DNA from: Candidatus Bathyarchaeia archaeon
Lineage (GTDB): Archaea > Thermoproteota > Bathyarchaeia > 40CM-2-53-6
Reading direction: 5' to 3'
Length of the DNA: 64,000 nucleotides
Assembly: GCA_049513715.1 (NCBI GenBank)
Contig: JBEKVV010000003.1
Coordinates: 320,001-384,000, forward strand
Part shown: one piece after another, positions 20,033-50,118 of the stretch
How the letters are laid out: each line of letters begins with the position of its first letter
Numbering within the stretch: position 1 is the stretch's first letter
Translations under genes and position numbers: made by a program
The notes under the pieces: model-generated
Database searches by the model: none
The model's input: only the letters and a program-made list of their open reading frames with translations
Told to the model about the DNA's origin: nothing

Positions 20033-20035
20033 GGC

Positions 20036-20562: not shown

Positions 20563-20603
20563 ATATGATATGTTATTTGTATGATATGATATGTTATTTG
20601 TAT
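20563..20603. repeat. 20-bp direct tandem repeat ATATGATATGTTATTTGTAT (period 21)
   Basis: Copies at 20563-20582 and 20584-20603; the second overlaps the ferredoxin stop codon. Confidence 0.85.
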
Positions 20604-25697: not shown

Positions 25698-25699
25698 AC

Positions 25700-27079: not shown

Positions 27080-27145
27080 TACAAGACAGATATTCGATTC
27101 AAGAAGAGTGGGAAAAAGAAAGGGGCGGGAGAGGTACAGGTGGTT

Positions 27146-28210
27146 TTAAGCTGGCGGAATTTCTTTGAACGCCATCTCGACAGGAATTCCTTTTCTCTTC
27201 CTGTATAGCGAAGCGATGAAGTAGAGTGCTAGACCTATGATGGCTGCGGCGACGTATATCATGACCGAGTCTTGCCACGGGCCGAGTCCCAGGCTCGGGT
27301 AGCTAAGGTAGAGGTAGGCGTTGAATCCGCACACAATCACTGCAACAATGCCGGCCAATGAAGGCAAAGGTCCCACCTTGAGATCTCTTATTGGAGATGC
27401 TTGGTAGACGTCTTTCTTCCTCCAGGGGAAGAAAATTGCTGTGATTGCTGTCAAGGCGACGTTTCCAACCCAGATGTACATGCTGCTCGCGGCGAGTACT
27501 GGGAATACATATGATGGCTGGAATGTAAGGCCTGCAAGAGTTAACCAGTAGAGCACACAACTGAACACTGTGGCGTAGACGGGTGTGTGGTATTTCTGGC
27601 TCACTCTACCCAAAACTGATGGGGCGAGTCTATCGAAGGACCAAGAGAAGATGTACCTTGAGGAGAGCATCATCGCAGGTATCATAACGACCACCGGCCA
27701 GAACATGAAGGTCACAGCAACGATGAACTGAATCACAGGATTTCCGTAGAGGATGGCCATCAGGAAGTTCGTGTATGGCGGTATAGGTAGTGGGTATTGG
27801 ACTGGTCCCATTGGCGGTGGGTTGCTGTAGATGAAGAATATGGAGGCCAGGAAATTGTATCCGACGACGTTGAAAAGCACGAAGAGTCCCAATGCTATCA
27901 ACAGACCGTTGAAGATTGTGGGACCGATCATGATTCCCAGCTGTCTCTTTGCACTGTCTGCTTTCTTGACTTCACCTGCCATGAAAGATGAGAAGAATCC
28001 CCAACATGTTGAGGATGTCCCTATTGCAATCATGCCCGTTGTCATTGCAGGATCGTAGGCCTTGGGTAGGGATAGATTCGCTTGATTCATGAACCATTGG
28101 TATGAATTCGATGAACTCGTGTACTGATTCATGAGCGTGTTGAAGTGCGTAATGAAAGCCTCTCGACTGGAAAATGCGAGCCCTGCAACACCAATCACCA
28201 GTCCGAAGAC
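27146..28210 (-). pseudogene. 5'-truncated APC-family permease
   Basis: Close paralogue of 30452-32086 but it begins at the GLAFSS segment, so about 190 N-terminal residues (including FVRKASG and PRSGGDY) are missing. It also has small in-frame indels. Confidence 0.75.
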
Positions 28211-28352
28211 GCGACGCAGCGGAACAATCTAAGATGATCCCACGGTAGGCACTACAAGTCATGAACAAGTAACGAACATACATACTGCCTCAAAGGCCAG
28301 AATTTTGAGATATCGCAAGAATTTTGCAGAACTTTGCAATCTGCCGTGAAAC

Positions 28353-28955
28353 TCAACCAGAACCGACTTTAACCTCGATTTCGCTCGGATTGGTGTTGCA
28401 TTTTTCGTCGTCAGGGCATGAAGTCACGCCAACAACAACATCGCGTAAAGCTTCGAGCTCCCCATAGTCTCCAGCTGCGGCCTTGGAAGGAAGTAATTCT
28501 AAGTCATTGATTTCTGCGAAAAATGACGCCATTGCAGGGAGATGCGCTCGTTCAATGTTGAAAAGTCTAGATAAAATGTCTCTGCAGCCCAATCGGCCAT
28601 CGCTGTAAATCTCTCTCCAGCATCCGGGGAACATGACATCCATCCCCACTGAAGATTTCTTCTTGACGATTCGCAGAACTGGATTCACGTTTCCATCAAC
28701 GAGCACGTCTCCTTCCTCTAGACTCGTTACGAGTTTGGGGGCACTGTAGCGCCGCCAGCCGTTGAAGTTTCTGGTCATCGCCTGATCAAAACCTAGGAAG
28801 GTCAGGTCTGAGGCCTGCCCGCCGTTTACGGTTTTGACCATTATATGGTCTCGTTTCCTGCACTCGACGAGCACGCCTTCTCCATGCTTTATGAGGTGTC
28901 GCTGCAAGTCTACTATTCTCGTCTGAAGCGAAGGTGTACCAGAGTTGATAGACAT
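28353..28955 (-). CDS. DUF1989 family protein, copy B
   Basis: Paralogue of 23716-24309 sharing an identical central block. Confidence 0.75.
   Translation of the reverse strand: MSINSGTPSLQTRIVDLQRHLIKHGEGVLVECRKRDHIMVKTVNGGQASDLTFLGFDQAMTRNFNGWRRYSAPKLVTSLEEGDVLVDGNVNPVLRIVKKKSSVGMDVMFPGCWREIYSDGRLGCRDILSRLFNIERAHLPAMASFFAEINDLELLPSKAAAGDYGELEALRDVVVGVTSCPDDEKCNTNPSEIEVKVGSG
28633..28812 (-). repeat. Right arm of a perfect 180-bp inverted repeat
   Basis: Reverse complement of 23850-24029. Confidence 0.92.
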
Positions 28956-29063
28956 TTGCTTTCAATTTGATGGATGAAAAGCATGGTTATGGGCTTTATA
29001 TTTCACCAAAGAAGAGCGTCACATTGTACGATAACCGCGAAAGCGAATTGAGCATGATTCTGC

Positions 29064-30422
29064 ATGGTGGATCTACTAGTCAAGAATGGTTTCGTAATGA
29101 CTGTTGATGAAAGACACAGTCAATACAGAGACGGATGTGTAGTCGTGGATGACGGTCTGATCATCGATGTTGGGGAGTCGGACCGAGTTTGTCGGGAGTA
29201 TGAAGCTGAACGTGTGATTGACGCGCGTGATATGGCGGTTCTACCCGGATTCGTGAACGCTCATGTCCACACCTCTGAAAAGCTAGTCCCAGGTCTCGCC
29301 GATGACTTAGACCTGTACGAATGGGGTCAGAAGGTGATTAATCCCATGATGTTGAATCAATCCAACGAGGATTGTTACTGGGCCTCACTCCTCGGCCAAG
29401 TCGAGATGATAAAATCCGGAATCACTTGTTACGCTGACTTGTTTTCTAGCCCGAACAAGGATTTGCTCCAAGTGCTCGTTAGCACGGTTGAGAAATCTGG
29501 AATGCGTGCAGTTATTGCGAGGGAGAACTACAACAAAGAAGCCCTTCCAGACGAATGGCGATTGTCAGTTCCCGACGAAATGACGGAAAACATGATTGAG
29601 GAGACCACTAGATATGTCAAGACTCAGAAGGGGCAGCCGAGCAGGATTTCTGTGAGATTCGGTCTAGGAGGCGTATGTTACGCTTTTCCTTCTTTGATCT
29701 CTAGAGTTCGGGCGCGAGCCACGGAATTAGGGATTGGAATACACGTTCACATTTCCGAAAGCATAGATGAAATTCGATTTCTGAAACGCCAAAAAAACAA
29801 AACCCCCGTGAGATACGCGTATGAGCAAGGCTTACTGGGACCTGACGTTCTGGGAGCACATTGCATTTGGTTAGATCATGAGGAAATAGATATCCTGCGA
29901 AGGACAGGGACAAAGGTGGCCTACAACCCCGTTTCAAACATGAAGTTGGCTGACGGTGTCGCTCCTGTGAACAGAATGATTGAGAAGGGCGTCACAGTGG
30001 GTTTGGGAACCGATGGTGCTGCGAGCAACGACAACTTCGATATGTTTGCTTGCATGAAGATGGGATCTTACCTCCAGAAGGTCCATCATCTGAATCCAGC
30101 ATTGCTTAGTTCACAGAGGATACTGGAGATGGCGACGATAGACGGCGCGAGGGCGTTGCAGATGGAAGATAGGATAGGGTCGATCGAGCGTGGGAAGAAA
30201 GCAGACCTAATGCTGGTGAGCCTGAACGCCCCCAACATTGTCCCAGTCCACGATCTGGCCAAGCAACTAGTCTGTTCGGGAAGCCCGGAGAATGTGGACA
30301 CTGTAATAATCGATGGGGACATAGTCTTGGAGGGGAGACGATTTACGAAGCTAGATGAAGCCAGAACGATCAAAGAATCCAAGGTCAGGGCGGAGAAAGT
30401 TGTTAAACGCATGTACTCGTAG
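29064..30422 (+). CDS. Amidohydrolase, deaminase type
   Basis: NAHVHTSE, HVHISE, GAHCI and GTDGAASN motifs; closest to 25700-27079. Confidence 0.9.
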   Translation: MVDLLVKNGFVMTVDERHSQYRDGCVVVDDGLIIDVGESDRVCREYEAERVIDARDMAVLPGFVNAHVHTSEKLVPGLADDLDLYEWGQKVINPMMLNQSNEDCYWASLLGQVEMIKSGITCYADLFSSPNKDLLQVLVSTVEKSGMRAVIARENYNKEALPDEWRLSVPDEMTENMIEETTRYVKTQKGQPSRISVRFGLGGVCYAFPSLISRVRARATELGIGIHVHISESIDEIRFLKRQKNKTPVRYAYEQGLLGPDVLGAHCIWLDHEEIDILRRTGTKVAYNPVSNMKLADGVAPVNRMIEKGVTVGLGTDGAASNDNFDMFACMKMGSYLQKVHHLNPALLSSQRILEMATIDGARALQMEDRIGSIERGKKADLMLVSLNAPNIVPVHDLAKQLVCSGSPENVDTVIIDGDIVLEGRRFTKLDEARTIKESKVRAEKVVKRMYS

Positions 30423-36675: not shown

Positions 36676-37617
36676 TCAGAAAGGCGTGCCGCTGCCGACA
36701 TAGCACTTGATTTGATTTTGCTCGAAAATTCTGGCCACATGCATCATTTTGTCGTCCAAGGGAGCGGTGACGCTCCTGTACTTGTATTCCCAACCAAGCT
36801 GCTCGTACTTGGTTGTCCCTAACCTGTGAAAAGGAAGTAGGTTCACCTCCTTTTTCCTAATCTTCTTCATGAAAGTAGCCGTAGCTTTCATGTTCTCATC
36901 AGAGTCATTGAAACCAGGCACTACTGGAATACGGACGACAATTCTCGAATCGTTCCTTTGTGCGATTATGCCCTCTATGTTCTTGAGAATTAGCTCGTTG
37001 GTAACGCCTGTTCCTTCTCTATGCTTTTCTGGATCCATGTGTTTGATGTCAACGAAAACCCAATCAGCATAATTCAACGCTCTCTCCAAAATCTTTGGAG
37101 AAACATGCGCGCATGTCTCTATGGCTGTGTGAACGTAGGAATTGTAGAGCCTCTCAAGCATGGCAGTAGTGAATTCAGGTTGGGCTAGAGGTTCGCCGCC
37201 ACCGAACGTGACGCCGCCTCCTTGTCCCCAATAGGCCCTGTCTCTGGTCACGATCTCCATGGCTTCCTCTACGGTGACATCGCGGCCGACGACCCGTAGT
37301 GCTCCGTTGTAACAGCTGTTCACGCAGCTGAATTGGTGGCATTTTTCGCATTTTGACCAATCGAGGGTGATGGAATCTGCATTATTCGCCTTGCTGATAG
37401 CCCCGACGGGGCATGCTCCCACGCAGCTGTAGGTTTCTGCCTTGCATTTCCTTTGACTGTACATCAACTGAGGTTTGAACGATTGCCCTTCAGGGTTACA
37501 GCACCAGCTGCACTTGAGCGGGCACCCCTTCATGAAAAAGAGTGTTCTGCATCCGGGTCCGTCATGAACAGAGAAGCCCTGAACATCAAAAACAAGACCC
37601 CTCAGACTATGTGCCAT
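36676..37617 (-). CDS. hpdA: Glycyl-radical activating enzyme, HpdA-like radical SAM
   Basis: HDGPG, GCPLKCSWCCNPE, a ferredoxin-like insert, GVTFGGGEP and LLPFH motifs. Confidence 0.9.
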   Translation of the reverse strand: MAHSLRGLVFDVQGFSVHDGPGCRTLFFMKGCPLKCSWCCNPEGQSFKPQLMYSQRKCKAETYSCVGACPVGAISKANNADSITLDWSKCEKCHQFSCVNSCYNGALRVVGRDVTVEEAMEIVTRDRAYWGQGGGVTFGGGEPLAQPEFTTAMLERLYNSYVHTAIETCAHVSPKILERALNYADWVFVDIKHMDPEKHREGTGVTNELILKNIEGIIAQRNDSRIVVRIPVVPGFNDSDENMKATATFMKKIRKKEVNLLPFHRLGTTKYEQLGWEYKYRSVTAPLDDKMMHVARIFEQNQIKCYVGSGTPF

Positions 37618-37654: not shown

Positions 37655-37945
37655 TCACTCCCGGTCGTGTCGGGTTTTGGGCTCAGACTTCCACTCGAAT
37701 ATTTCGCATGTTCGTGTTCTGAGTTCGGGGAATGTCACGGTTATTCCTTTGCAGAGGCCCAGGGCATCAGTTTTGCTCGTGTAATTTGCGCAGAACTTAC
37801 ATTTCTTGGTTGGGACGCATTCAGTGCATGCATTTTCGTCTGTCAGAACGGAGCGCTTGTTGAGGTGACAGATTCCCTTGAAGACGTCTACTGGGGTGAA
37901 ATAGTCGCAGTCGCCACATTTCGAAACTTGGAGTTGTGTCAGCAT
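37655..37945 (-). CDS. hpdC: 4-hydroxyphenylacetate decarboxylase small Fe-S subunit-like
   Basis: CGDC..F..VD..KGIC...C....KCKFC..Y....GLC....TCE, the duplicated Fe-S pattern of HpdC. It lies between the GRE and its activase. Confidence 0.85.
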   Translation of the reverse strand: MLTQLQVSKCGDCDYFTPVDVFKGICHLNKRSVLTDENACTECVPTKKCKFCANYTSKTDALGLCKGITVTFPELRTRTCEIFEWKSEPKTRHDRE

Positions 37946-40687
37946 TTACATCAGCTCTTCGTATTCGGTTCGTGCGATGATCTCGTCCTGAATGGGTTTA
38001 GGAAGCTCTACCCAGTAATGGGTGAACCCGGCTACTCTGACGAGGAGGTCTCTGTAGTTTTCAGGATGAGCCTGGGCCTCCCTGAGCATCCTGGTGTCGA
38101 CCACATTGAACTGAATATGAAAGCCTCCCTTCCTCATGTATCCTCTAATCAGTTCGAGGAGTTTTCTTGCTCCTTCCCTTCCTCGAATTGCTGATGGATG
38201 TACCTTGAGATTCATCTGTGTGCACTGAGATTCAGAATGGTCGAAGCATGTGGCAGAGTTGAACAGGGCGTAGGGTCCATTGAGATCTGTACCGGGATAA
38301 GCGGATAAGGAAGCGTCAGCGTATGTGGTGCCGTGCAATCGTCCGTCAGGTGTGGCAATCGCTGCGGCTCCCATCGGACCATGAGTTGACACGGAAAGTT
38401 GAAGCGCATACAGTGGTTTGCCGTACAGGGATTTGTACTCGTGCGGGACCGAGCAGTAGAATTGCTCGAACGTCTTCAGGATTTCATCTGCGAAGGCATC
38501 ATCGTTTCCATATTTTGGTGCATTCAAACACCGGTAATGGGTCTCATTCCATTCTTGTGAAATTCTCTCTTGTTCCAGAAGTGAGTACGAGCCTACTTCT
38601 TCCGCGGTCTTGTACCCGAAATTACTGCGCAGTGCTTCTTTCAAATGATCGAGTGTCATCGATTTGTCTGTGTAAACGTTCTTTTTCAGCGAAGCCAGCG
38701 AGTTAACCAAGTTCATTCCGCCACAGATGTTGACGCTGAAGGTTCTGTTGTACCTGGACCCCAGCATCCCGATATGCATGCCTTTGTCGAGGCAATCGGG
38801 TTTCAATATTGAGTTGACTAATGGTGGGGTTAGTTTTCTCCAGATATCATGCTGGACATTGTTGCAGCGTATGAGGACGTCCATGATTCTTCTGAAATAG
38901 GCCTTGTATGCATCCCAGACTTCCTCGTAAGTCTCCAACTTGTAGCCGTGTGGCGGCAACACACGTCTACCTGTCCTCTGGTCAACTCCATCAAAGAGCA
39001 CTAGCTCAAGGATCTTTGGAAGGTTTAGGAAGTGGACTCCCACATCGGTTGCCGGTGCTGCCCCGCCTCTGGGAATAGTGTACTTCTTCCCGTTCAGTTC
39101 TAAGTCGACCCAAGTGCAGGCAGATGTCTGCAGGCAACCGCCTATAGCGACAGCCCTCGCTTCCTCCAGAGTCATTCCTTCTGGTCCGAAGTTCTTAAGG
39201 AGGAATTCTGTGGCAATTCGGTTGTTGACCCACGCAGGATAACCTGTCCCCGTCTTATTGCACTCAATGGCTTTCATGAGGAACTCTTCAGGCAATACCT
39301 CATCGTAGAGCAAGGTGAAGGTAGGTTGCGGGGTTTCGCAGGTGATACCAGATTCTATCATTAGCATTTCAAGTTCGTTTGCGGCGCTTTGACCGTCTTT
39401 TGTTAAGCCTCCCAAACTGACGTTGTTGAAGGTGCTTCCTGACTGTATTCCCTCAATGACGGATTTGGGTCCGAACAGGTCGATTTCGGTGAATTTCATT
39501 CTCATGCATTCTAGAAGCTCCATGGTTCGGTCTTGATCAATTCTCCCCGCGTCGACATCTTCCTTCCACCAAGGGTAGAGGACCTGCCCCAGCCTGCCCG
39601 GCGCTAAGCCAGAAAAATTGTCTTCGTTCAATACAGCGATGTGGAAAGTCCAGCACAACTGCAATGCCTCACGGAACGTCCGGGGCGGCTTTGATGATAC
39701 CCATTTCAGGATATCACGAATCTCTTCGTACTCTCTTCTCTGCTCCGGGTCCTTCTCTGTCCTCGCTAGTCTCTGCGCCTCGTCTGCAAAGTTGAGGATC
39801 CATTTCTTGATACCTTCGAGGATGATTGTTGCGGCTTTGTAGAAGTATAGGCGGTCCATTCCGTTTATTCCGTCATTCCCCGGATCGCCGCCGACTTCTG
39901 CCATCTTCTTCCTGCAAATCTCGATGATGCCGTCGATTCCGAATTGCAGGGGGTAGTAGTAGCTGATCACTTCCCTTCCTTGTGGTAATGTGTATCCTGA
40001 ATCGTACATGCAGACTAAGCTGCGCATTATCGCTTCTTTTTCGTCGTACCCCTGAACCAGCTGCTCATACTGATGCGAAACATCTTCGACGGACTTGTCA
40101 TCCCACATCGTGCTGATTTCTTTGAGGATTGGGAATTCCTCTTTTCTTAAACCGAATTTTCCTGCAATCGGAATTACGTTTCCAGTTGCGATGGTTACGT
40201 TGCCCCCGCCCTTCGCCACCTTTACTACTTCTTCAGCCGCCAGACCTCTCTTCTTAGCTTCCTCGTACCTCTTCTCAGTCTCGATAAGATAGGTTTGCGA
40301 CAGCCATGGCATGGGGAAGGACCCTCTCAAGTAAACAGTCCTCTCCATCACGAGCAGCTCTCCCTGGAAGATGCTTGGCGTTAGGTGGGAGTATGCGTAA
40401 CTGAGAGCCTTTGCCCTCCTGACTAGTGGAATCTCACCTTCAAGTTCATTCCATCTCCTCGTATACCAGTAAGGGAACTCAACGCTCGCTGAAGACTTTG
40501 TCTGGAGATAGCGGTCTCTGATGTTTCTGGCACGAAGGGTCGGTTGCTTCTTGGTTTCGCGCGACCCGATTTGCTCGGAAGCCTGTTTTCCGTATTGAAA
40601 GGATAGTTTGAGGCCTCTGCTCACTTTACTCTCCGCAAGTCTTTCATGCGTTTCCTTTTGCTTTGTTTCCTCTAACATTCCAATCAC
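37946..40687 (-). CDS. hpdB: Glycyl radical enzyme, 4-hydroxyphenylacetate decarboxylase large-subunit-like (variant active site)
   Basis: EFPYWYTR, PQGREV, SG..PGR, TFNN, GGCLQ (Cys loop), GVHF and RVAGF (Gly loop) motifs; 913 aa. Confidence 0.85.
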   Translation of the reverse strand: MIGMLEETKQKETHERLAESKVSRGLKLSFQYGKQASEQIGSRETKKQPTLRARNIRDRYLQTKSSASVEFPYWYTRRWNELEGEIPLVRRAKALSYAYSHLTPSIFQGELLVMERTVYLRGSFPMPWLSQTYLIETEKRYEEAKKRGLAAEEVVKVAKGGGNVTIATGNVIPIAGKFGLRKEEFPILKEISTMWDDKSVEDVSHQYEQLVQGYDEKEAIMRSLVCMYDSGYTLPQGREVISYYYPLQFGIDGIIEICRKKMAEVGGDPGNDGINGMDRLYFYKAATIILEGIKKWILNFADEAQRLARTEKDPEQRREYEEIRDILKWVSSKPPRTFREALQLCWTFHIAVLNEDNFSGLAPGRLGQVLYPWWKEDVDAGRIDQDRTMELLECMRMKFTEIDLFGPKSVIEGIQSGSTFNNVSLGGLTKDGQSAANELEMLMIESGITCETPQPTFTLLYDEVLPEEFLMKAIECNKTGTGYPAWVNNRIATEFLLKNFGPEGMTLEEARAVAIGGCLQTSACTWVDLELNGKKYTIPRGGAAPATDVGVHFLNLPKILELVLFDGVDQRTGRRVLPPHGYKLETYEEVWDAYKAYFRRIMDVLIRCNNVQHDIWRKLTPPLVNSILKPDCLDKGMHIGMLGSRYNRTFSVNICGGMNLVNSLASLKKNVYTDKSMTLDHLKEALRSNFGYKTAEEVGSYSLLEQERISQEWNETHYRCLNAPKYGNDDAFADEILKTFEQFYCSVPHEYKSLYGKPLYALQLSVSTHGPMGAAAIATPDGRLHGTTYADASLSAYPGTDLNGPYALFNSATCFDHSESQCTQMNLKVHPSAIRGREGARKLLELIRGYMRKGGFHIQFNVVDTRMLREAQAHPENYRDLLVRVAGFTHYWVELPKPIQDEIIARTEYEELM

Positions 40688-40695
40688 GTTCTAAT

Positions 40696-42993
40696 TCAGC
40701 AATATTCGGTCTTTCCTTCATTTAGGGCGGCCAGCACTTTGGCCGGTGATATTGGCAAGGACCTGAATCTGATGCCTATTGCGTCTTTTATCGCATTAGC
40801 TATGACTGGTGCCACCGGGTGCAATGATGCCTCGCTTATGCTCTTTCCTCCCACTCCAGATGGCTCGTTGGTTTCAACCAGTATTACTTGGGCTTCTGGC
40901 ATGTCTGAGACTGTAGGAATCTTGTAGTCCGTTAGGTTTGAATTGAGAACCCGTCCTCGTTCATCGAACTTCACTTCTTCCATCAAGGTCTGGCCGATTC
41001 CCTGCCCAATCGCGCCATACACCTGTCCTTTCGCTCCAGCCGGGTAGATTGCCTTCCCCAGATCTTGGGCCGCGACGTATCGGGTTACGAACACTTGGCC
41101 GGTGAGCATGTCTACATCTACTTCTGCGAAATGTGCTCCGAATGGTGGTGGATTGTCGGGCGGTTCAGCTGCCAGCGAGACGACCAAGCTCTTGTTTAGA
41201 TGGAATCTGGCAAACAGTCCAAGCTCTGAAAGAGGAAGGTGAACAGTGGGATCTTGTGTCGAGACCAGATGTTTGCCTTGAATCTTCAACGACTCGGGGT
41301 TCTTGTTCAGCATCTCTCCAGCTGCCTTAAGGACCTGTTCTCTCAGTTGTTCGCAGGCTGACTTTATGATACTACCAACAACATACGTCCCTCGACTGGC
41401 ATGGATCGCGCCTTCGAAAAGGGTTGTATCTGTATTGCCAGTCTCAAGGTCGATCATGTCGGCGTCGGTTCCGAGTGTTTCTTGCGCAATATTGCGATAT
41501 ACAGTGTGTTGGCCGCATCCCATGTCTATCGCGGCAGTTAGCACGATGAACTTTCCATCCTCATTGAACTTCACGGTCACGCCAGAATGCTCAATTATCT
41601 TTTCCACCGTTGACTTGGTTCCAGTTCCCGATCCTCTTATGGTCTGAAAAGCGACGCCCCTACCTCTTCTCCTGTTTGGATCAAGTGGCTGCTGAATCGG
41701 TTTACCCCATCCGAATGCTTCGCCTGCTCTTCTCGCCGATTCTTCCAGCCCACAAGAGTTAATCGTGTAGCCACTTCGGGGGTTCACGTCGCCAAGTTTG
41801 AATGAATTCTTGAGCCTGAATTCGATTTGGTCAAAACCCATTTTGTCTGCGATATCGGTCATCTGGCTTTCTATAGCGAAGGCACATTGTGCGCCACCGT
41901 ATCCTCTCATCGCTCCCGGAGAGTACGTGTTGGTGTAAGTTGCATAGGCTTCGAAAAGGCGGTGGGGAGCATTGTAAGCCGCATCAAAGTACATACCTCC
42001 AACGATTGCAACGCTTGGCCCATGCGTCGCGTAGGCTCCTGTGTTGGCAACACATTTGCAGTAACGAGCAGTGATCGTTCCATCCTTCTTGACTCCTGTC
42101 TTAATCGTCAGGCGCATGTCATGCCGCGAGGTCGTGACGAAGACCTCAGATCTGTTAAGCCCAAGCCTCACAGGCTTCCGAGCCTTCCCCGCGAGAAGGG
42201 CGCAAATCGGTTCAACATCGCTCATCTGCAGTTTTGATCCGAAAGAACCTCCCAGGTATGTGTTGTGGACCCTTATCGTAGAGACCGGGAGAGCTAGAGC
42301 TTCAGACAGGCGTTCCCTCAGAAGGAATATACTCTGGGTTGATGACCAAATGTTCAGCTTCCCTTTCTCATCCCAGTGAGCGATCGCACAATGGGCCTCA
42401 AGCGGAACTTGGTTCTGCCTCTGCGTTCTGTATTCGTCCTCAAAAATCTCATCAGCGAGTCGAAAACCTTCGTCGATGTTACCATAGCGTATGCTCATGG
42501 GGTTGCCGCCCTTGGCATCCCATGCCTCGGCGACATTCGACTTCAACTCAGTCCTTACTTTTGGTGCGCCTGGTTTGAGTGCTTCAACTGGGTCTGTAAC
42601 ATACGGTAAGTTCTGATAATCGACATGGATTCTCTCTGTTGCCTCCTCAGCCAATTCCTGAGAAGTCGCTGCTACCGCCGCAATTGGTTCGCCGACGTAG
42701 CATACCTCCTTCCTCATAATCGATTTATCTTTGGGCAGAAGGCCGGCTTCGGGGTACGGGGCGTTGAAAATCGGGTTGTACCTCGTATCGGGCACGTCGG
42801 CAAATGTAACGATGGCCTTGACGCCTTCCAACTTCAAGGCCTCTGACGTGTCAATTGATTTTAGTATGGCATGGGGTTTGGTGCTTCTCAGAATCGCACC
42901 GTATAGCATCCCTGGAAGCTGCATGTCCGAGGTAAACTTCAGCTTTCCAGTTACCTTCTGAACAGCCTCAACTCTCGACAAAGGAACACCAAT
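40696..42993 (-). CDS. Xanthine dehydrogenase/aldehyde oxidase family molybdopterin subunit
   Basis: KVTG, LRSTKPHA, STQ, GGSFGSK, AMRGYG, ASRGT and GKSISE motifs. It lacks the CODH AYxCSFR motif. Start is TTG 42981 or ATT 42993. Confidence 0.92.
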   Translation of the reverse strand: MGVPLSRVEAVQKVTGKLKFTSDMQLPGMLYGAILRSTKPHAILKSIDTSEALKLEGVKAIVTFADVPDTRYNPIFNAPYPEAGLLPKDKSIMRKEVCYVGEPIAAVAATSQELAEEATERIHVDYQNLPYVTDPVEALKPGAPKVRTELKSNVAEAWDAKGGNPMSIRYGNIDEGFRLADEIFEDEYRTQRQNQVPLEAHCAIAHWDEKGKLNIWSSTQSIFLLRERLSEALALPVSTIRVHNTYLGGSFGSKLQMSDVEPICALLAGKARKPVRLGLNRSEVFVTTSRHDMRLTIKTGVKKDGTITARYCKCVANTGAYATHGPSVAIVGGMYFDAAYNAPHRLFEAYATYTNTYSPGAMRGYGGAQCAFAIESQMTDIADKMGFDQIEFRLKNSFKLGDVNPRSGYTINSCGLEESARRAGEAFGWGKPIQQPLDPNRRRGRGVAFQTIRGSGTGTKSTVEKIIEHSGVTVKFNEDGKFIVLTAAIDMGCGQHTVYRNIAQETLGTDADMIDLETGNTDTTLFEGAIHASRGTYVVGSIIKSACEQLREQVLKAAGEMLNKNPESLKIQGKHLVSTQDPTVHLPLSELGLFARFHLNKSLVVSLAAEPPDNPPPFGAHFAEVDVDMLTGQVFVTRYVAAQDLGKAIYPAGAKGQVYGAIGQGIGQTLMEEVKFDERGRVLNSNLTDYKIPTVSDMPEAQVILVETNEPSGVGGKSISEASLHPVAPVIANAIKDAIGIRFRSLPISPAKVLAALNEGKTEYC

Positions 42994-43100: not shown

Positions 43101-43979
43101 ATGAGGGCAACAGTACCATTAGTTGACTATTACACTCCAAAGACAGTCGCGGAGACCGTGAGACTTCTCACGAAGCTGGAAAAAGCCAGCATTTTGGCTG
43201 GTGGGACGGATTATGTTCCTGCAACTAGGATGAAGGGATTCAGGCCGAAGAATCTAGTCTCATTGAAAAACCTCGGAAAGCACCTGCGCTATATTTCCTT
43301 CAAGAATGGGGTCATTAAGATTGGGGCCCTCACACGAATGAGGGATATAGAGAAATCGGAAGTAATACGGAAGCATGCGCCCCACCTTTACGAGGCAGCA
43401 GCGCAGGTGGGAGCCATCCCGATTAGGAACAGGGCTACGCTCGGAGGGAACCTATGTAACGCCAGTCCGGCCGCTGATACTGCTCCTCCATTGCTGACGC
43501 TGGACTCTGTCGTTGAGATTGTTGGACCTCGCAAGAAAAGAACCGTTTCCATCGACGACTTCTTTGTGGGCGTTGGAAAAACTGTATTGAAGAAGGGCGA
43601 GATTGTGAGCGGGATCTCGTTTCGACCGTGGAAGGGGGGCTTCGCATTCATGAAGATTGGGCGACGGCAGGGTGAGGATATTGCAGTAGCATCGGCAGCT
43701 GTTTCAATCAAGATGAAGGGCGAGAAGATTTCGGATGTGAAGATAGCTCTGGGAAGTGTTGCTCCAACACCCATTAGAGCACGTAAAGCAGAAGCCGACT
43801 TGTTTGGGAAAGAGCCAACCAAGGAAGCATTGGAATCTGCAGCCAGGAAAGCTGCGGAGGAATCTAGCCCCATAGATGATGTTAGAGCCAGCGCTGACTA
43901 TCGTAGGAAAATGGTAAAAGTACTGGTAACATCGACTCTCTCACAGGCAGTTAAGAAAGCAAAGGGTGATTCATCATGA
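43101..43979 (+). CDS. Xdh/CoxM-type FAD-binding subunit
   Basis: AGGTD, IRNRATLGGNLCNASPAAD and DDVRASADYR motifs. Confidence 0.92.
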   Translation: MRATVPLVDYYTPKTVAETVRLLTKLEKASILAGGTDYVPATRMKGFRPKNLVSLKNLGKHLRYISFKNGVIKIGALTRMRDIEKSEVIRKHAPHLYEAAAQVGAIPIRNRATLGGNLCNASPAADTAPPLLTLDSVVEIVGPRKKRTVSIDDFFVGVGKTVLKKGEIVSGISFRPWKGGFAFMKIGRRQGEDIAVASAAVSIKMKGEKISDVKIALGSVAPTPIRARKAEADLFGKEPTKEALESAARKAAEESSPIDDVRASADYRRKMVKVLVTSTLSQAVKKAKGDSS

Positions 43980-44458
43980 ACATAGATCTCAAAATTAACG
44001 GTGAAACCGTTAGGCTGGACATACCGCCAAACGAAATTCTGCTGGACACACTGAGAACCAGAATTGGTTTGACCGGCACCAAAGATGTGTGCAGGACGGG
44101 AGATTGCGGGGCCTGCACTGTGCTGGTTGATGGTGAAGCCGTACACTCATGCTTGGTATTGACAGTCGAAGTCCATGGATCCAGAATTCTTACGGTGGAG
44201 GGACTTGCCGAGAACGACAAGCTCCACCCATTGCAGCAGGCGTTTATTGAAGAAGACGCCACACACTGCGGGTACTGCACACCAGGAATTTTGATGGCTG
44301 GCGTGGCGTTGCTTAATGAAAACAGCAACCCCAACCGTAGCGACGTTGAGGAGGCATTGAAAGGAAACCTATGCCGGTGCGGGACCTACTATGACGCAGT
44401 AAACGCCATTCTGAAGGCTAGCCAGAAGATTGGAAAGAGCAAATCGAAGACTCACTGA
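43976..44458 (+). CDS. Xdh/CoxS-type 2Fe-2S subunit
   Basis: CRTGDCGACTV, CGYCTPG and NLCRCG motifs. Confidence 0.93.
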   Translation: MNIDLKINGETVRLDIPPNEILLDTLRTRIGLTGTKDVCRTGDCGACTVLVDGEAVHSCLVLTVEVHGSRILTVEGLAENDKLHPLQQAFIEEDATHCGYCTPGILMAGVALLNENSNPNRSDVEEALKGNLCRCGTYYDAVNAILKASQKIGKSKSKTH

Positions 44459-44515: not shown

Positions 44516-45976
44516 ATGGCAGATTTGATTCTGAAGAATGGAAAACTCGTCCTACCTTCCGGCGTAATGGAGGGGGGTGTTTCAATCGCGGATGGAGTCA
44601 TAGAGAAAATCGCGAAGGATGCAAATCTCCCAAAGGGTGACAAGGAAATCGATCTGCAGGGCAAATTGGTTCTCCCTGGAGCAGTTGATATCCACACGCA
44701 TCCTGGGGGGAAACATCCACTCGGTGACGACTTCAAAACAGAGACTCCAGGCGCGTTGATGGGAGGCGTCACTACAATGGGCGGAATAGTCCGGGTTCCC
44801 AGAATGGGGCAACCGTTCAAAGAGGACACGGACCCCGCGGAGGTTGTGTCATGGTTTGACGTTTTTGAGTTGGGTAAGAGAACTGCTCAGACGAATTCTT
44901 GCGTCGACTTCTTCTTCATCTTCACTTTGAACTCGATGCAACACGCTGAGGAAATCCCCAAGTACGTTCGAGAGCTGGGTGTTGCAGCTTTCAAGTATCA
45001 TGGAAACCTGAAGAACTTAGCAGACCACCCTATGGGACAAAAGTGGGCAAGGAGAATGGCGTTGCCTGCACCTTACGATGACAGTCTCGCCTTCCGCGCC
45101 ATGGAACAGGTGGGAAAGACAAAGAAGGCGATTCTACTACTGCACTGTGAGAACTCAGAGATATCGAAGCTATTCAGAGAACGCGTGAGGTCGCAGGGAA
45201 GGGCGGATCCTGAAGCATGGACTGAAACTCTACCGGGCTTCTTGGAAGCTGAACACGTCAGGAGATACTCGTACCTTGCCAAAGCGACTGGCGCCCCAAT
45301 TCATGTGGTGCACATAACTTCGCGCGAAGGCCTTGAGGAAACGTTTGAGGCGAAGAGCCAAGGAGTCAAACTAACGGTCGAGACTTGCCCGCAATACTTG
45401 ATGGTAGACCCCGCGAAAGCGGGATACTTGGGCAAACTCAACCCTCCTCTCCGAAAACAGGAAGACCGAGAAGCACTCTGGAAAGGTGTGAAGGATGGGT
45501 GGGTCGATTCGATTGGGACGGACCATGTGGTGAGCAACAAATACGAAAAACTGGTTTGGGGAGACGGCGCACCTCCCGGAGGAGACCCTGCCTCAAACAT
45601 ATGGTTCACCGGTTCTGGAAGCGTAGGCACACAAACGATGCCCATAACGATGTTCTGGGAGGGTTACGGTAAAAGAGGGATGTCCCTCAGCAGATTGGTT
45701 GAACTAATCTCCACAAACCCCGCAAAAATTGTGAGAATATACCCGAAGAAGGGCGTCATTGAGACTGGCTCGGATGCCGACCTGATGATAATCGACCAGC
45801 AGAAAGAAGGTAAGATTACGGCCGAGTGGATCAAATCCTATGGAGATTTCACCCTCTTCGAAGGAATGACAGGGAAAGGATGGCCATACATGACTATCCT
45901 CAGGGGGCAAATCGCAATGCAGGAAGGAGACCTGCAGGTAAACCCAGGGTACGGCCAATTCGTGAGATGCGTATGA
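44516..45976 (+). CDS. Cyclic amidohydrolase (hydantoinase/allantoinase/dihydroorotase family)
   Basis: DIHTH, FK (carbamylated Lys), LHCE, VHIT, ETCPQY, NPPLR and GTDH motifs. Confidence 0.88.
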   Translation: MADLILKNGKLVLPSGVMEGGVSIADGVIEKIAKDANLPKGDKEIDLQGKLVLPGAVDIHTHPGGKHPLGDDFKTETPGALMGGVTTMGGIVRVPRMGQPFKEDTDPAEVVSWFDVFELGKRTAQTNSCVDFFFIFTLNSMQHAEEIPKYVRELGVAAFKYHGNLKNLADHPMGQKWARRMALPAPYDDSLAFRAMEQVGKTKKAILLLHCENSEISKLFRERVRSQGRADPEAWTETLPGFLEAEHVRRYSYLAKATGAPIHVVHITSREGLEETFEAKSQGVKLTVETCPQYLMVDPAKAGYLGKLNPPLRKQEDREALWKGVKDGWVDSIGTDHVVSNKYEKLVWGDGAPPGGDPASNIWFTGSGSVGTQTMPITMFWEGYGKRGMSLSRLVELISTNPAKIVRIYPKKGVIETGSDADLMIIDQQKEGKITAEWIKSYGDFTLFEGMTGKGWPYMTILRGQIAMQEGDLQVNPGYGQFVRCV

Positions 45977-47379
45977 CTACGATAATCAAGAACGCCGTAA
46001 TCTACACTAACGACCCGTCTGTAGGAACAATCTGGGACGGAGCCGTCGTCGTTGACGGCCCCAAAATAGTTGCCGTTGGAAAAACGGAAGAAATCCTGCG
46101 AAAACATCCCACCAAGGATAATGTGATAGACGCAAAATGGAAACTCGTCATCCCAGGACTAATCGACGCACACATGCACCTTGATTCAGCTTACCTGCGG
46201 GGCCTCATTCCGCCAAAATGGATGGGATGGCTAACAACGTACTTTGGTTGGTACTTCGACATAATGACTGAGGAGGACTTCTACTATTCCAGCCTGTTCA
46301 GCATTGGAAAGAGACTCCTGACGGGCACAACCACCATTGTTGACTCAGGCCCTCTTCCTGGCTTCGAAAAAGCAGCCATACGGGCAGTCGAAGCCAGCGG
46401 TGCAAGAGCCAACTTGAACAGAATAACGATGGATGTCTACGATGAGGTCCTAGGAAAAGATGGCTTTTCCGGAAAACACAGAGAGGATACGGAGACGGCA
46501 CTCAAGAATGGTCGCGAGTTCGTCCAGAAATACAAAGACCGCTTGGGCCGGGTCAAGACCGGGCTTTGCATGATGCAGGTCCCAACTTCAAGCGAGGAGT
46601 TAGGAAGAGGGGCACGAAAGATAGTAGATGAGTTTGGAGGTACATTACATACCCACGCGGGTGTGCATGGCGAGCTCCTTGAGAAGACCAAGAAACTTTA
46701 TGGAATGACAGACATAGAGTACCTTGACAAAACGAATCTACTATGTGACAAATTGACGGCCGCGCATATGGGTTGGGTGACAGATGACGAGATAGCCCTT
46801 GTGGCCAAGAAGATGGTGAACGTTGCTCACTGCCCAACCTCCACAACGATCAATGGAAAGGGCATCTTGTCTAAGGGCAATATTGTGAAAATGGATCGAT
46901 CGGGCGTCAACTTGGCACTGGGTACCGATGAATTAGATATCACAGATATCGTGAGGGTCATGTTTGCCGTATTGATTCACAGAGACGTATGGATGGACTC
47001 TACTCTCTTCCCCCTTGATAAGGTGCTAAACATGGCTACGGCTAATGGTGCCAAAGCAGTTGGAATGAGAGACAAACTCGGGAGTATCTCGCCAGGGAAG
47101 CTAGCAGACATGGTCCTCCTCGATCTCAAGAACCCCGATTTGCTGCCAGTCTATGACTATTCTTTGCTACCGAACCTGATAACTTCAGCATCAGGCTCTA
47201 GTGTTGACACAGTTCTTGTGAATGGGGAAGTTGTCGTAGAGAACAGGCGGATAAAGACTTTCGACATGGATAAGGTCTCGACGGAAGTGCAGCGGCGAGC
47301 AAAGAGATACGTAGAATCCGCCGTCGAAAGAGGAATGCATGCAAAAGGAGCCCAGCTCTCACCTCCCTACCCGTTGTAA
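45973..47379 (+). CDS. Amidohydrolase, divergent deaminase-like (no HxxE glutamate)
   Basis: DAHMH, HTHAGV, AAHMG, HCP and LGTD motifs. The ATG at 45973 overlaps the upstream TGA (ATGA); the track start at 45826 is too far upstream. Confidence 0.85.
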   Translation: MTTIIKNAVIYTNDPSVGTIWDGAVVVDGPKIVAVGKTEEILRKHPTKDNVIDAKWKLVIPGLIDAHMHLDSAYLRGLIPPKWMGWLTTYFGWYFDIMTEEDFYYSSLFSIGKRLLTGTTTIVDSGPLPGFEKAAIRAVEASGARANLNRITMDVYDEVLGKDGFSGKHREDTETALKNGREFVQKYKDRLGRVKTGLCMMQVPTSSEELGRGARKIVDEFGGTLHTHAGVHGELLEKTKKLYGMTDIEYLDKTNLLCDKLTAAHMGWVTDDEIALVAKKMVNVAHCPTSTTINGKGILSKGNIVKMDRSGVNLALGTDELDITDIVRVMFAVLIHRDVWMDSTLFPLDKVLNMATANGAKAVGMRDKLGSISPGKLADMVLLDLKNPDLLPVYDYSLLPNLITSASGSSVDTVLVNGEVVVENRRIKTFDMDKVSTEVQRRAKRYVESAVERGMHAKGAQLSPPYPL

Positions 47380-47437
47380 TCACCAAAAACCGAAACTCAA
47401 CGTAGCCCGGCAAGAGACACTATTCGAGTGAAAGCTC

Positions 47438-48664
47438 GTGAAGACCGAGGAACCTGAGAAGAGTGTGCTGAGCAAGATCAAAAGCGAAGACGTGATCAGC
47501 CTTACCCAACAGCTTATCAGAATACCCAGCCACAGAAATTGTGAAGGACAGGAAAAACAAATCGCGGAGTTCATCGCGGACGCGTTAGAGACGATTGGCG
47601 CCGAAGTCTCGCTGCAAAGGGTCGTCAATGACCGATTCAATGTCATTGGAAAGATTTCGGGCGAGGCTGACGGTCACAGCTTAACTTTGACCGGCCATTT
47701 GGACACCGTGCCAGCGGGTAATATGGAAATAGAGCCCTTTGCCGGCACCATACGTGACGGCAAAATCTACGGGAGAGGGGCTTCAGACATGAAAGGCGCA
47801 TTGGCAGCGATGATTTGTGCTCTGCGAGCAGTGAAGGAATCTCATGTGCACCTAAAAGGCGACCTAGTCTTCGTTGGCGCAATCGGAGAAGAAACAACAA
47901 GCGAAGGTACCACGTATCTCGTAAGAAATGGCCCGAAGACCGATTTTGCGATCAATGGCGAGCCAACCAATATGGACCTGGCGGTCGCGCACAAAGGCTC
48001 AGTACTCATTCAAATAACTGCAAGCGGGAAGGCCGCCCATTGTGACACACCCTGGCTCGGAATAAACGCCGTAGAAAAGATGAGCAAGATTGTTCAAACG
48101 ATAGCAGACCGAGTACCAAACGAACTAAAACAGAAGACTCACAAGTACACCGGACCGCCGACAATCAACATAGCCTACATCAGTGGAGGCGAATGGCCCT
48201 ACACAGTCGTACCGGACGAATGCAAAATAGTAATCATAACAGGACTCCTGCCAGAGGAAAAAAGAGAATCAATACCGTTACTGTATGAGAGAATTATTAA
48301 GGAATTGCAGACCCACGACCGCGAGCTTTGCGCAAAGGTCGACATCATACCTATTGAAACAATACCGGAGGGGTATAACCTGTCTTTTGAGATACCGGAA
48401 TCTTCACCGATTGTCAAGTCGTTAAAGCATTGCGCGATGCGAGTACTTGGCACGGGGCCCAAATTGGTCGGCGTTCCTTACTGGTGCGACGCGTCGATTC
48501 TCTCCTATGCTGGCGTTCAGACAATCATTTTTGGTCCAGGTAATATCGGCGTCGCTCATTCATCGGTGGAATACGTTCCAGTGAAGGACCTGATTAACTC
48601 ATCAAGAGTGTACGCTTTGTCAGCGCTCGATATATGTCAGCGCGATAGAAGCCCGATGAAGTGA
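47438..48664 (+). CDS. M20 family metallohydrolase (ArgE/DapE-like)
   Basis: GHLDTV, GRGASDMKG, GEE, GEPT, FGPG and AH motifs. Confidence 0.9.
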   Translation: MKTEEPEKSVLSKIKSEDVISLTQQLIRIPSHRNCEGQEKQIAEFIADALETIGAEVSLQRVVNDRFNVIGKISGEADGHSLTLTGHLDTVPAGNMEIEPFAGTIRDGKIYGRGASDMKGALAAMICALRAVKESHVHLKGDLVFVGAIGEETTSEGTTYLVRNGPKTDFAINGEPTNMDLAVAHKGSVLIQITASGKAAHCDTPWLGINAVEKMSKIVQTIADRVPNELKQKTHKYTGPPTINIAYISGGEWPYTVVPDECKIVIITGLLPEEKRESIPLLYERIIKELQTHDRELCAKVDIIPIETIPEGYNLSFEIPESSPIVKSLKHCAMRVLGTGPKLVGVPYWCDASILSYAGVQTIIFGPGNIGVAHSSVEYVPVKDLINSSRVYALSALDICQRDRSPMK

Positions 48665-48699
48665 GCTCTGCCCAAACCAGAGGCGTTTACACGTTCAGC

Positions 48700-50118
48700 T
48701 TAGGGAGCTCTAGAGCGCCAAGGTCTGTTCTTGAGGTTTGAAATACCCGAAATCTCCACGAGCTCATCCGCAGCGGCTCTGCCTTCGCCCAGAATTTCAT
48801 CTTCATCAACCGTAATCAACCTCCTTCCCCTCATTAGGATTTGTCCGTCGACGATCGTCGTGTCTATGTTTTCGCTCGTGGCGCTGTAGACCAACGCTGA
48901 AACGGGGTTGTGGGCGGGTGCAGCGAAAGTTTTTGATAGGTCGATTAGAAACAAATCGGCCTTCTTTCCTGGTTCAATCGAGCCGACTTCATGCTCAAGT
49001 CGAAGAGCCCTGGCCCCGCCAATTGTCGCCATTTCAAGAACATCTTCTGCAGTAATGATTGTGGGGTTGCCAGGGTGAGCAACCTTGTGCAAAAGCGCCG
49101 TAACCTTAACTAACTGCAGCATGTCCTGGTTATTGTTGCTCGCTGCGCCGTCCACGCCCAAGCCGACGGTTATGCCTGATTTTAGCATTTTTGGGATAGG
49201 AGCTACTCCTGACGACAGGTACATGTTACTGGTGGCATTGTGGGACACCTTGGAGTCCGATTTCTTCATGATTCCAATGTCGTCATCGTCGAGATAGACG
49301 CAGTGAACCGCCAAGAAGTCAGGTCCGAGAAGTCCGATCCTGTCAAACAACTCCAGTTCCCTGCAATGAAAGCGGGACCTGCAGTTCTCAACCTCAAACG
49401 GTGTTTCTGCAACATGCATCGTTATCCCTATTTTCAATTCGTCTGCCAGTCTTCTGCAGCCTTTCAGTGCCTGCTCGGTGACACCCCAAATTGCAACTGG
49501 AGCGATCCAAACTCCCAGTCTCCCGTTGTGATTCGCTGCGAACTTGCGATGCATGCGTCGAATCTCGTTGAACGATTCATCTGAGTTGTGGATGATTTCG
49601 GAGGGCAAACCTACCTCAAGCCCAGTGTCGATGACTCCATGACCGACGATCCCTCGAATGCCTGATTCTTGAAACGCTAGAAGTACTGCCTCCGATAGTT
49701 CGGGAACGGGATGTGCGTACATGTAGTCCAACGTTGTGGTCGTGCCGGATTTGATGGCCTCAACGACTCCGAGAAGGGCGCTGGCGTGAACATGTTTATA
49801 GGTTAGTTTGCGGGAGCTCGGAACAATTATCGTCCTTATCCAGTCCGCTAAGACTCGATCATCGCCTAACCCTTTGAGCATGACTTGAAATAGATGGGTG
49901 TGGGTGTTGACAAACCCCGGGAACACGGTTTTCCCGTTTGCCTCTATCACTTCGTCGGCCCTTGGGTGGCTTTCAATAACCTCCCTAGTTGGGCCGACAG
50001 CGCGAATGCGATTGCCCTCAACGTAGACCGCGCCGTTCCTGATGATGTTTCGCTTCGGACTTACAGTAACGACTGAATCTGCATTTCTAATGAGTATGCT
50101 GGATGCCTTTAACGGTAC
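48700..50118 (-). CDS. Amidohydrolase, deaminase type (HxHxxQ, 8-oxoguanine/pterin deaminase-like)
   Basis: NTHTHLFQ, HVAE, AVHCV and GVDGAASN motifs. The conserved N-terminal domain extends to about 50118 without a canonical start (track start 49950). Confidence 0.85.
   Translation of the reverse strand, partial: VPLKASSILIRNADSVVTVSPKRNIIRNGAVYVEGNRIRAVGPTREVIESHPRADEVIEANGKTVFPGFVNTHTHLFQVMLKGLGDDRVLADWIRTIIVPSSRKLTYKHVHASALLGVVEAIKSGTTTTLDYMYAHPVPELSEAVLLAFQESGIRGIVGHGVIDTGLEVGLPSEIIHNSDESFNEIRRMHRKFAANHNGRLGVWIAPVAIWGVTEQALKGCRRLADELKIGITMHVAETPFEVENCRSRFHCRELELFDRIGLLGPDFLAVHCVYLDDDDIGIMKKSDSKVSHNATSNMYLSSGVAPIPKMLKSGITVGLGVDGAASNNNQDMLQLVKVTALLHKVAHPGNPTIITAEDVLEMATIGGARALRLEHEVGSIEPGKKADLFLIDLSKTFAAPAHNPVSALVYSATSENIDTTIVDGQILMRGRRLITVDEDEILGEGRAAADELVEISGISNLKNRPWRSRAP

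Follow-up and report, generated by a model that had tools for sequence, protein, structure and literature searches.

The window analysed here is a stretch of 64,000 nucleotides from contig JBEKVV010000003.1 of a Candidatus Bathyarchaeia archaeon; positions are numbered from 1 to 64,000 along it, and residues are counted on the 913-aa translation of the gene under study. This gene (37946..40687, minus strand) is predicted to encode the large, catalytic subunit of a glycyl radical enzyme (GRE) resembling 4-hydroxyphenylacetate decarboxylase (HPAD), in which both catalytic glutamates of HPAD are replaced, one by Gln and the other by Asn. HPAD is an oxygen-sensitive radical enzyme of bacterial p-cresol formation. 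The open reading frame (ORF) has 913 codons, read from a GTG at 40687, and its translation is free of stops; the public gene call begins three codons later, at the ATG at 40678, and gives 910 aa. The product matches the Pfam families PFL-like (PF02901, 459 bits) and Gly_radical (PF01228, 94 bits), and the features of the GRE superfamily are all found: the PFL-like barrel, a C-terminal glycyl radical domain with the RVxG glycine, the Cys-loop cysteine and a radical-SAM activase. On the NCBIfam equivalog model for HPAD (NF033715) the protein scores 1365.2 bits against a cut-off of 1150, and other members of its clade score 1443 and 1235 bits. On the model for indoleacetate decarboxylase (IAD, NF033718) it reaches 742.9 bits, below the cut-off of 1100; a small subunit is present in the system and the first catalytic glutamate (Glu1) is absent.

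The active site of HPAD is described in the available text of PMC4979209 as comprising Arg223, Ser344, Gly345, Phe405, Cys503, Glu505, Gly532, His536 and Glu637. The accessible part of PMC6181972 describes Glu1 (Glu505) and Glu2 (Glu637), and gives Leu400 as the residue that faces the substrate ring. A phmmer comparison with Clostridium scatologenes HPAD (2Y8N_A) aligned residues 53-910 of our protein at 974 bits. In this alignment Cys518, the predicted thiyl-radical cysteine (codon TGC, 39134..39136, on the minus strand as are all codons of this gene), corresponds to Cys503, and Gly887, the glycyl radical site (38027..38029), to Gly873. Arg238 corresponds to Arg223, Ser359 to Ser344, Gly360 to Gly345, Phe420 to Phe405 and His552 (codon CAC) to His536, so that the published active-site set is retained at these five positions. 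The Glu1 site is occupied by Gln520 (CAG, 39128..39130; both CAG and CAA occur in the clade) and the Glu2 site by Asn653 (AAC, 38729..38731). Besides the glutamates, Leu400 is changed to Gln415 (39443..39445) and Gly532 to Asp548 (39044..39046), a new acid specific to the clade and located four residues before His552. The original prediction had proposed the replacements E505Q and E637N from the motifs GGCLQ (516-520), YNRTFSVNICG (646-656), PQGR (235-238), GVHF (550-553) and RVAG (884-887). All five motifs stand at the residues claimed, the codon coordinates given for Cys518, Gln520 and Asn653 are correct, and the proposed offsets relative to the C. scatologenes enzyme (+15, +15, +16 and +14) are reproduced by the alignment, which confirms both replacements and places no acidic residue at either position. 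When the large subunit, modelled with AlphaFold2 (pLDDT 88, pTM 0.90), was superposed on HPAD, as had been suggested, it matched 2Y8N and 2YAJ with a target-normalised TM-score of 0.97 and a root mean square deviation of 2.4 A over 881 columns. The sequence observation is confirmed in full.

Two further genes complete the system. The start of a 96-aa small Fe-S (gamma) subunit (37655..37945, minus strand) abuts the stop codon of the large subunit; it scores 63.3 bits on NF033716 (cut-off 50) and matches Pfam 4HPAD_g_N, and its eight cluster-binding cysteines are invariant across eight aligned small subunits from loci with and without the glutamates. It is followed by a radical-SAM activating enzyme of 313 aa (36676..37617, minus strand), with 344 bits on TIGR02494 (cut-off 174) and 408.6 bits on the HPAD-type activase model NF033717, narrowly below its cut-off of 420. 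The radical machinery was predicted to be intact, and the retention of Gly887 and Cys518, the eight cysteines and the scores above cut-off on NF033716 and TIGR02494 bear this out. As judged from these predicted products, the gene is the catalytic subunit of a complete three-part glycyl radical system of the HPAD type. The build and gene order are the same as in HPAD (HpdBC/CsdBC plus activase; C. scatologenes, 2Y8N/2YAJ; NF033715/NF033716/NF033717), with which the system shares the Gly and Cys radical sites, Arg223, Ser344, Gly345, Phe405, His536 and the 8-Cys small subunit.

We then asked how widely the Gln/Asn pair (hereafter Q/N, as opposed to the E/E pair of canonical HPAD) is distributed. 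Among 121 sequences, comprising the query and the best 120 of 1003 proteins found, seven are Q/N, 114 are E/E and none is mixed, so that the two positions covary perfectly. The Q/N members are the query, its cluster representative P0002 (the query's own public gene call), P0003, P0004, P0005, P0006 and P0027. Identity of the query to E/E HPADs is 62-68%, and identity of the GRE among Q/N loci 62-77%. A metagenome scan yielded 74 loci, and 69 GRE ORFs from loci L003-L080 were aligned together with the window, eight short loci in which the match covered less than half of the query being left out. The aligned rows comprise 11 Q/N (the window and ten others), one with Gln and a truncated second site, 51 E/E, two with Glu and a truncated second site, one truncated at both sites and four Glu/Trp. 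The latter are IAD-like loci of Actinomycetaceae with 43-45% identity, and were the only matches of the single-protein scan of genome contigs.

In the FastTree phylogeny, built from 135 rows, all 15 Q/N sequences are united with a support of 98, and a branch with support 97 sets the 115 E/E sequences apart. A quick IQ-TREE phylogeny (LG+C20, 33 rows) gave supports of 99 for Q/N, 93 for E/E and 100 for the two together against IAD-like outgroups. The query is placed outside the canonical E/E clade, in its sister group, which consists of two sub-branches; the position of the root is uncertain because the outgroups are long branches. The conserved Q/N clade that the original prediction proposed to look for was thus recovered as monophyletic and sister to canonical HPAD in both trees, and the phylogenies indicate that the Q/N enzymes are a separate conserved lineage and not nested within HPAD. 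Three pairs with unsaturated synonymous sites gave dN/dS values of 0.029, 0.056 and 0.058, which point to strong purifying selection on the Q/N genes; between the window and the other lineages synonymous sites are saturated. The pair is therefore not a peculiarity of one genome under relaxed selection, as it occurs across the clade with dN/dS of 0.03-0.06. The loss of two residues held to be essential could suggest a decaying or catalytically dead copy; against an open frame, three intact genes, these low dN/dS values and substitutions fixed across lineages with saturated synonymous sites, we give that explanation a negligible probability.

The replacement of the glutamates is part of a wider change. 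Gln at the Glu1 site and Asn at the Glu2 site are found in 15 of 15 Q/N rows, and Glu at both sites in 115 of 115 canonical rows. When signature positions were defined as those fixed in at least 90% of Q/N rows and present in at most 5% of E/E rows, 25 positions separated the two groups. Six of them lie in the L2 loop around Leu400 (K408, I411, E412, I414, Q415 and S418); others are V513, which replaces a Trp, and Q520 at the Cys loop, D548, and S651 and N653 near Glu2. At position 743, Trp is changed to Phe in the Q/N clade. The Gly532 site is Ser in 113 of 115 E/E rows; in the Q/N clade Asp548 is invariant. Some 20 more HPAD-invariant positions differ in the Q/N proteins. Unlike HPAD, therefore, the query has Gln for Glu505, Asn for Glu637, Gln for Leu400 and Asp for Gly/Ser532, together with 21 other clade-fixed changes; it also differs from canonical HPAD in its sister-clade position, its gene neighbours and its archaeal host. 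The carboxylate end of the site looks conserved, and amide, acid and imidazole side chains would now line the distal end.

The genes next to the GRE were then considered. Immediately upstream and on the same strand lies a molybdopterin-binding subunit of the xanthine dehydrogenase (XDH) family (40696..42981, minus strand; Pfam MoCoBD_1, MoCoBD_2 and Ald_Xan_dh_C), whose stop codon is located 8 nt before the GRE start. Across a 119-nt spacer, four genes diverge from this pair on the plus strand: an XDH-family FAD-binding subunit (43101..43979), an XDH-family [2Fe-2S] subunit (43976..44458), a hydantoinase/dihydropyrimidinase (DHPase)-like cyclic amidohydrolase (44516..45976; TIGR02033 261 bits, cut-off 393; nearest structures, L- and D-hydantoinases) and a TRZ/ATZ amidohydrolase of the deaminase/chlorohydrolase type (45826..47379). 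The real start of the latter is probably near 45970, because family matches begin around residue 50 and the ORF as called overlaps that at 44516-45976 by 151 nt. All five products, the molybdenum (Mo) subunit included, stay below every NCBIfam equivalog cut-off. The nearest solved structure to the Mo subunit is the alpha subunit of 4-hydroxybenzoyl-CoA reductase (331 bits, versus 190 bits for bovine xanthine oxidoreductase). The purine-binding Glu of xanthine dehydrogenase, which we take to be bovine Glu802, belongs to the motif GGGFGGKE; in the Mo subunit this motif reads GGSFGSKL. An assignment as xanthine dehydrogenase proper was rejected on the basis of this motif, the closer match to 4-hydroxybenzoyl-CoA reductase alpha and a score of 591 bits on the xanthine dehydrogenase equivalog NF043082 (cut-off 780). 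Operon structure is suggested here by gene spacing only; a sigma-70 promoter and terminator scan, a model not applicable to an archaeon, returned no more sites than shuffled sequence.

Conservation of this context was examined by using window proteins as BLAST queries against the loci. Seven Q/N loci carry the Mo subunit upstream of their GRE (73-74% identity), and seven carry the FAD and [2Fe-2S] subunits (54-58% and 68-74%). The DHPase-like protein occurs in eight Q/N loci (67-73%) and the TRZ/ATZ amidohydrolase in six (64-74%), locus L020 being included in both cases. Independent lineages with context are four, namely the window, the P0004 group, L010 and L020; the Mo enzyme is linked to the GRE in three of them and the two amidohydrolases in all four. 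In L020 the order is amidohydrolase, CMD, DHPase, amidohydrolase, PnrA-type ABC transporter, GRE, small subunit and activase. The Q/N loci also repeatedly carry a TrmB regulator that follows the activase, a pair of isochorismatase genes, CN hydrolases, aldehyde:ferredoxin oxidoreductase, DUF1989 and UbiD. None of the Mo enzyme, the DHPase-like protein and the TRZ/ATZ protein was found in the 51 E/E loci; upstream sequence extends for 5 kb or more in 18 of these loci, and downstream sequence does so in 24. The original prediction had invoked uridine-phosphorylase-like and aminotransferase neighbours as context. Neither has a match of at least 40% identity in related loci, and the class-III aminotransferase of L015 reaches only 27%.

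The neighbours that are conserved, namely the Mo enzyme and the two amidohydrolases, bear on whether the substrate ring is heterocyclic at all. The substrate could instead be a carbocyclic, differently substituted arylacetate (4-aminophenylacetate, dihydroxyphenylacetate or 2-oxindole-3-acetate), the N-heterocycle genes being mere bystanders in a catabolic island. The replacements of Trp by Val513 and of Trp by Phe743 would make room for a larger ring, the L020 lineage lacks XDH genes, and, according to the available part of a 2026 review (PMC13450708), the characterised GRE decarboxylases all use arylacetates derived from amino acids and arylacetate decarboxylase (AAD) tolerates 4-aminophenylacetate. 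Against this, the DHPase-like and TRZ/ATZ genes accompany the GRE in four of four lineages with context and are about as conserved as the GRE itself (64-74% versus 62-77% identity), and the Mo subunit is co-directional with the GRE and lies 8 nt from its start. We regard a carbocyclic substrate as unlikely.

The wider window is dense in families of nitrogen-ring catabolism. Besides the TRZ/ATZ amidohydrolase described above, it contains seven more ORFs of that type, the last of which runs off the window end. Two CN hydrolases, UbiD, AllG, an M20 peptidase, a PnrA-type ABC transporter and two class-III aminotransferases are encoded as well and, by this predicted gene content, the window is an N-heterocycle catabolic island. 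Some of these families are shared with the reductive urate/2,8-dioxopurine cluster of gut anaerobes, which consists of XdhD, YgfK, SsnA, HyuA, YgeY and YgeX in the available text of two preprints (10.1101/2025.05.19.654654 and 10.1101/2025.04.24.650524). Common to both are an XDH homologue, TRZ/ATZ-like SsnA, hydantoinase-like HyuA and the M20 peptidase YgeY, although the NCBIfam matches in the window are sub-threshold. In the urate pathway as described there, the XDH homologue, SsnA and HyuA act in a comparable sequence, but there is no GRE. Unlike that cluster, the window proteins stay below every equivalog cut-off, and the Mo subunit resembles 4-hydroxybenzoyl-CoA reductase more closely than XDH.

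To place the Q/N enzymes among known GRE decarboxylases, we compared them with the four arylacetate decarboxylases counted in the 2026 review, i.e. HPAD, phenylacetate decarboxylase (PAD), IAD and AAD, which by that review are the only GRE decarboxylases known (PMC13450708, available part). Among these, Glu1 is stated for IAD and HPAD in the accessible text of PMC13450708 and PMC6181972. IAD (Olsenella scatoligenes / O. uli; NF033718) belongs to the same structural subclass as the query and likewise lacks Glu2, having Leu616 in its place (PMC6181972, same limit). It differs in keeping Glu1 (Glu502), which is essential by mutagenesis according to the portion of PMC13450708 at hand, and, unlike the query's system, it has no small subunit. 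PAD/PhdB and AAD (7E7L) are GRE decarboxylases with active sites unlike that of HPAD, and the available parts of PMC13232127 and PMC13450708 describe PAD as lacking Glu637. PAD and AAD are also described as having neither a small subunit nor the extensions of HPAD and IAD (PMC13232127, in the part available), and they are much more distant from the query (276 bits for 7E7L).

A further protein of mixed character is P0123, a 50%-cluster representative with 47% identity to the query: it is HPAD/IAD-like, keeps Glu1 and has Asn at the Glu2 site. Its 901 and 839 bits fall below the HPAD and IAD equivalog cut-offs, respectively, and it represents a separate uncharacterised family.

With both catalytic glutamates lost, the protein might not be a decarboxylase: the thiyl radical could serve a C-N or C-C ring cleavage, an isomerisation or an X-succinate synthase-like addition on a carboxylate-bearing N-heterocycle. 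The residue two positions after the Cys is highly variable among uncharacterised GREs (E 60, D 14, S 11 and Q 8 of 127 rows, i.e. the query and 126 diverse GRE representatives). In the available text of PMC13232127, IAD, and by the authors' comparison HPAD, is structurally close to BSS and MASS. Moreover, YgfK performs a dearomatising step that is required in the related reductive urate pathway (10.1101/2025.05.19.654654, available part), and no YgfK-like gene turned up among the scanned window ORFs, no search aimed at YgfK having been made. Yet the proteins by far the most similar to it are decarboxylases (the E/E HPADs at 62-68% identity), carboxylate-binding Arg238 and Ser359 are kept together with the whole fold including both HPAD-specific extensions, and a second-substrate site of the fumarate type is not evident. 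A reaction other than decarboxylation appears to us quite unlikely.

Because the glutamates are lost, the pocket is remodelled and the clade lies beside nitrogen-ring-degrading genes, the enzyme probably decarboxylates a different, nitrogen-containing aromatic acid. We lean towards a GRE that decarboxylates a polar, lactam-type N-heteroaryl acetate in an anaerobic archaeal pathway for N-heterocycles. The original prediction of a different substrate or mechanism is supported by the alignment, the clade, the trees, the superposition and the selection analysis, with the caveat of the new acids Asp548 and Glu412. Its candidate substrates, imidazole-4-acetate, a pyridyl acetate and uracil-5-acetate, are guesses: the context supports an N-heterocycle and favours none of the imidazole, pyridone, pyrimidine and oxindole acetates.

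The Kolbe-type scheme for HPAD gives the two glutamates separate tasks: Glu637 takes the proton from the phenol, and Glu505 returns one to the Cys thiolate (PMC13450708 and PMC9248008, available text). In the Q/N enzymes, the activated protein would hold an acid of the aryl-acetate type in the same pose as HPAD does, so that its carboxylate lies at the thiyl radical. Distally, the substrate would end in a polar, lactam-type N-heterocycle, for instance an oxo-pyridine, oxo-pyrimidine or oxo-imidazole acetate, and its ring would be read by the side chains of Asn653, His552, Asp548 and Gln415 in place of a deprotonation by Glu637. Radical decarboxylation would then release a methyl-heterocycle. 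In a Kolbe-type cycle that lacks Glu1, Cys-SH would have to be regenerated with a proton from another group, such as Asp548, His552 or a substrate N-H; alternatively, the reaction could start by hydrogen-atom abstraction. The Mo enzyme encoded upstream probably installs or removes the ring oxo group, and the two amidohydrolases probably open the ring afterwards. The most specific version, in which the Mo enzyme oxidises the heteroaryl acetate, the resulting lactam stands in for the phenol and is read by Asn, His, Asp and Gln, the glutamate-less GRE decarboxylates and the amidohydrolases open the ring, is put forward tentatively, as possible but short of probable.

Several points weigh against this interpretation. 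The score on NF033715 lies above the HPAD cut-off (1365 versus 1150 bits) and, since all the residues that hold the carboxylate and the ring are kept, 4-hydroxyphenylacetate or a near analogue might be the substrate after all. Most of the 25 signature positions are put in the pocket only by sequence closeness to published active-site residues. The Q/N clade has gained two invariant acids, Glu412 in the L2 loop and Asp548 at the Gly532 site, which could take over the roles of the glutamates, so that acid/base help may have moved and not vanished. Gln two positions after the Cys is not rare in the wider GRE superfamily (8 of 127 rows), for which reason the surprise is confined to the decarboxylase lineage. 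As to context, the locus counts overstate independence, because eight of 11 related Q/N loci (ten full ones and the partial L016) are close variants of the P0004 cluster; in L020, XDH genes are missing from the 9.9 kb before and the 4.7 kb after the GRE; L015, a P0004-group variant, has lost its XDH neighbour and carries a transposase gene about 8 kb upstream of its GRE; and a gene neighbourhood is not proof of a shared pathway.

The family score, the invariant acids at 412 and 548 and the retention of Arg223, Ser344, Gly345, Phe405, His536, Cys503 and Gly873 speak for the alternative that the enzyme is still a p-cresol-forming 4-hydroxyphenylacetate decarboxylase, in which the acid/base roles of Glu505 and Glu637 have passed to Asp548, Glu412 or water. 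No published mutagenesis of the HPAD glutamates is recorded in the available part of the 2026 review (PMC13450708). However, all 115 canonical enzymes of the tree set keep both glutamates, Leu400, Ser347, Asn403 and more, and the Q/N clade changes them all together; the replacement of Leu400 by Gln would set an amide against the ring face; and the conserved neighbours are N-heterocycle enzymes that are missing from all 51 E/E loci. A 2022 paper in JACS, as far as its text is available, cites unpublished work according to which the C. scatologenes enzyme 'absolutely requires' the phenol-deprotonating Glu (PMC9248008); the sentence names this residue Glu505, and elsewhere the same paper gives the role to Glu637. 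A p-cresol-forming enzyme is in our judgement very unlikely. Since the two defining catalytic residues and the clade placement disagree with HPAD, we do not file the protein as such, and the HPAD label assigned through NCBIfam is probably a mislabel. The lactam-type N-heteroaryl acetate is the substrate that we continue to favour.

Other features of the window and of related loci were recorded alongside. Eight TRZ/ATZ or SsnA-like amidohydrolase ORFs lie in the 64 kb, within 24324-30422, 45826-49950, 60040-61419 and 63339-63992; two of them adjoin DUF1989 genes (23716-24309 and 28353-28955), and all eight score below the NCBIfam equivalog cut-offs. So dense a set of paralogues for the deamination or ring opening of N-heterocycles is unusual. 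Genes for a UbiD-family decarboxylase occur near the Q/N GRE in three lineages (window 55892-57199; L009 8141-9430; L020 13988-15568, the latter adjoining a flavodoxin-like gene), and UbiD may provide a second decarboxylation, one that acts on a ring carboxylate and needs no radical. Aldehyde:ferredoxin oxidoreductase genes are found near Q/N clusters in the window (15135-17009 and 21794-23512), L010 (17148-18926), L015 (7475-9322) and L014 (3-1067); a 4Fe-4S ferredoxin-like gene (20594-21016) comes after one of the two window copies. At 18980-20545 lies a homologue of the QueG-type epoxyqueuosine reductase (TIGR00276, 324 bits, cut-off 200), in this archaeal host, adjoined by a PTPS/QueD-like gene; a PTPS-like gene recurs near the Q/N GRE of L010 (15712-16221).

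With regard to distribution, query searches found the GRE neither in 400 other genomes sampled in the phylum nor in 40 relatives, 22 same-genus species included, many of these genomes being incomplete. Being missing from these two sets, the GRE is best seen as a patchy accessory trait. The GC content of the window is flat (0.49-0.54) and thus gives no compositional sign of recent transfer, and the contig carries archaeal traits (a proteasome subunit, TrmB regulators, ComA and aldehyde:ferredoxin oxidoreductases), its predicted gene content fitting an archaeon. The DHPase-like protein had one weaker match (40% identity) in the 400 phylum genomes, and no GRE-less version of the pathway came to light there. 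The genome encodes a second, distant GRE (contig C5, 147605-149362, locus L002; 791 aa, 36% identity), with an activase gene directly upstream.

A literature search, with subscription journals mostly outside its reach, found no description of the Q/N clade, nor of any GRE that uses heteroaryl acetates or is linked to genes of the XDH family. The evidence assembled here, drawn from predicted proteins and their genomic setting, describes a real, conserved and probably mis-annotated variant of an established enzyme type, closest in its predicted working to the GRE arylacetate decarboxylases, with an informative gene context. It is still debated whether the known GRE decarboxylases follow a Kolbe-type mechanism or one of hydrogen-atom transfer, and the two glutamates are at the centre of that debate; a natural, selectively maintained clade without either of them would be a ready-made test case. 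The 'HPAD' label given by annotation pipelines would wrongly credit these archaea with p-cresol formation. The enzyme suggests a further class of substrates and a radical step so far overlooked in the anaerobic catabolism of N-heterocycles by uncultured archaea of sediment and peat. If the full pathway proposed above is true, no earlier GRE decarboxylase would have acted on a heterocyclic acid or worked without the Cys-loop glutamate, and there would be a working GRE pathway in Bathyarchaeia-type archaea.

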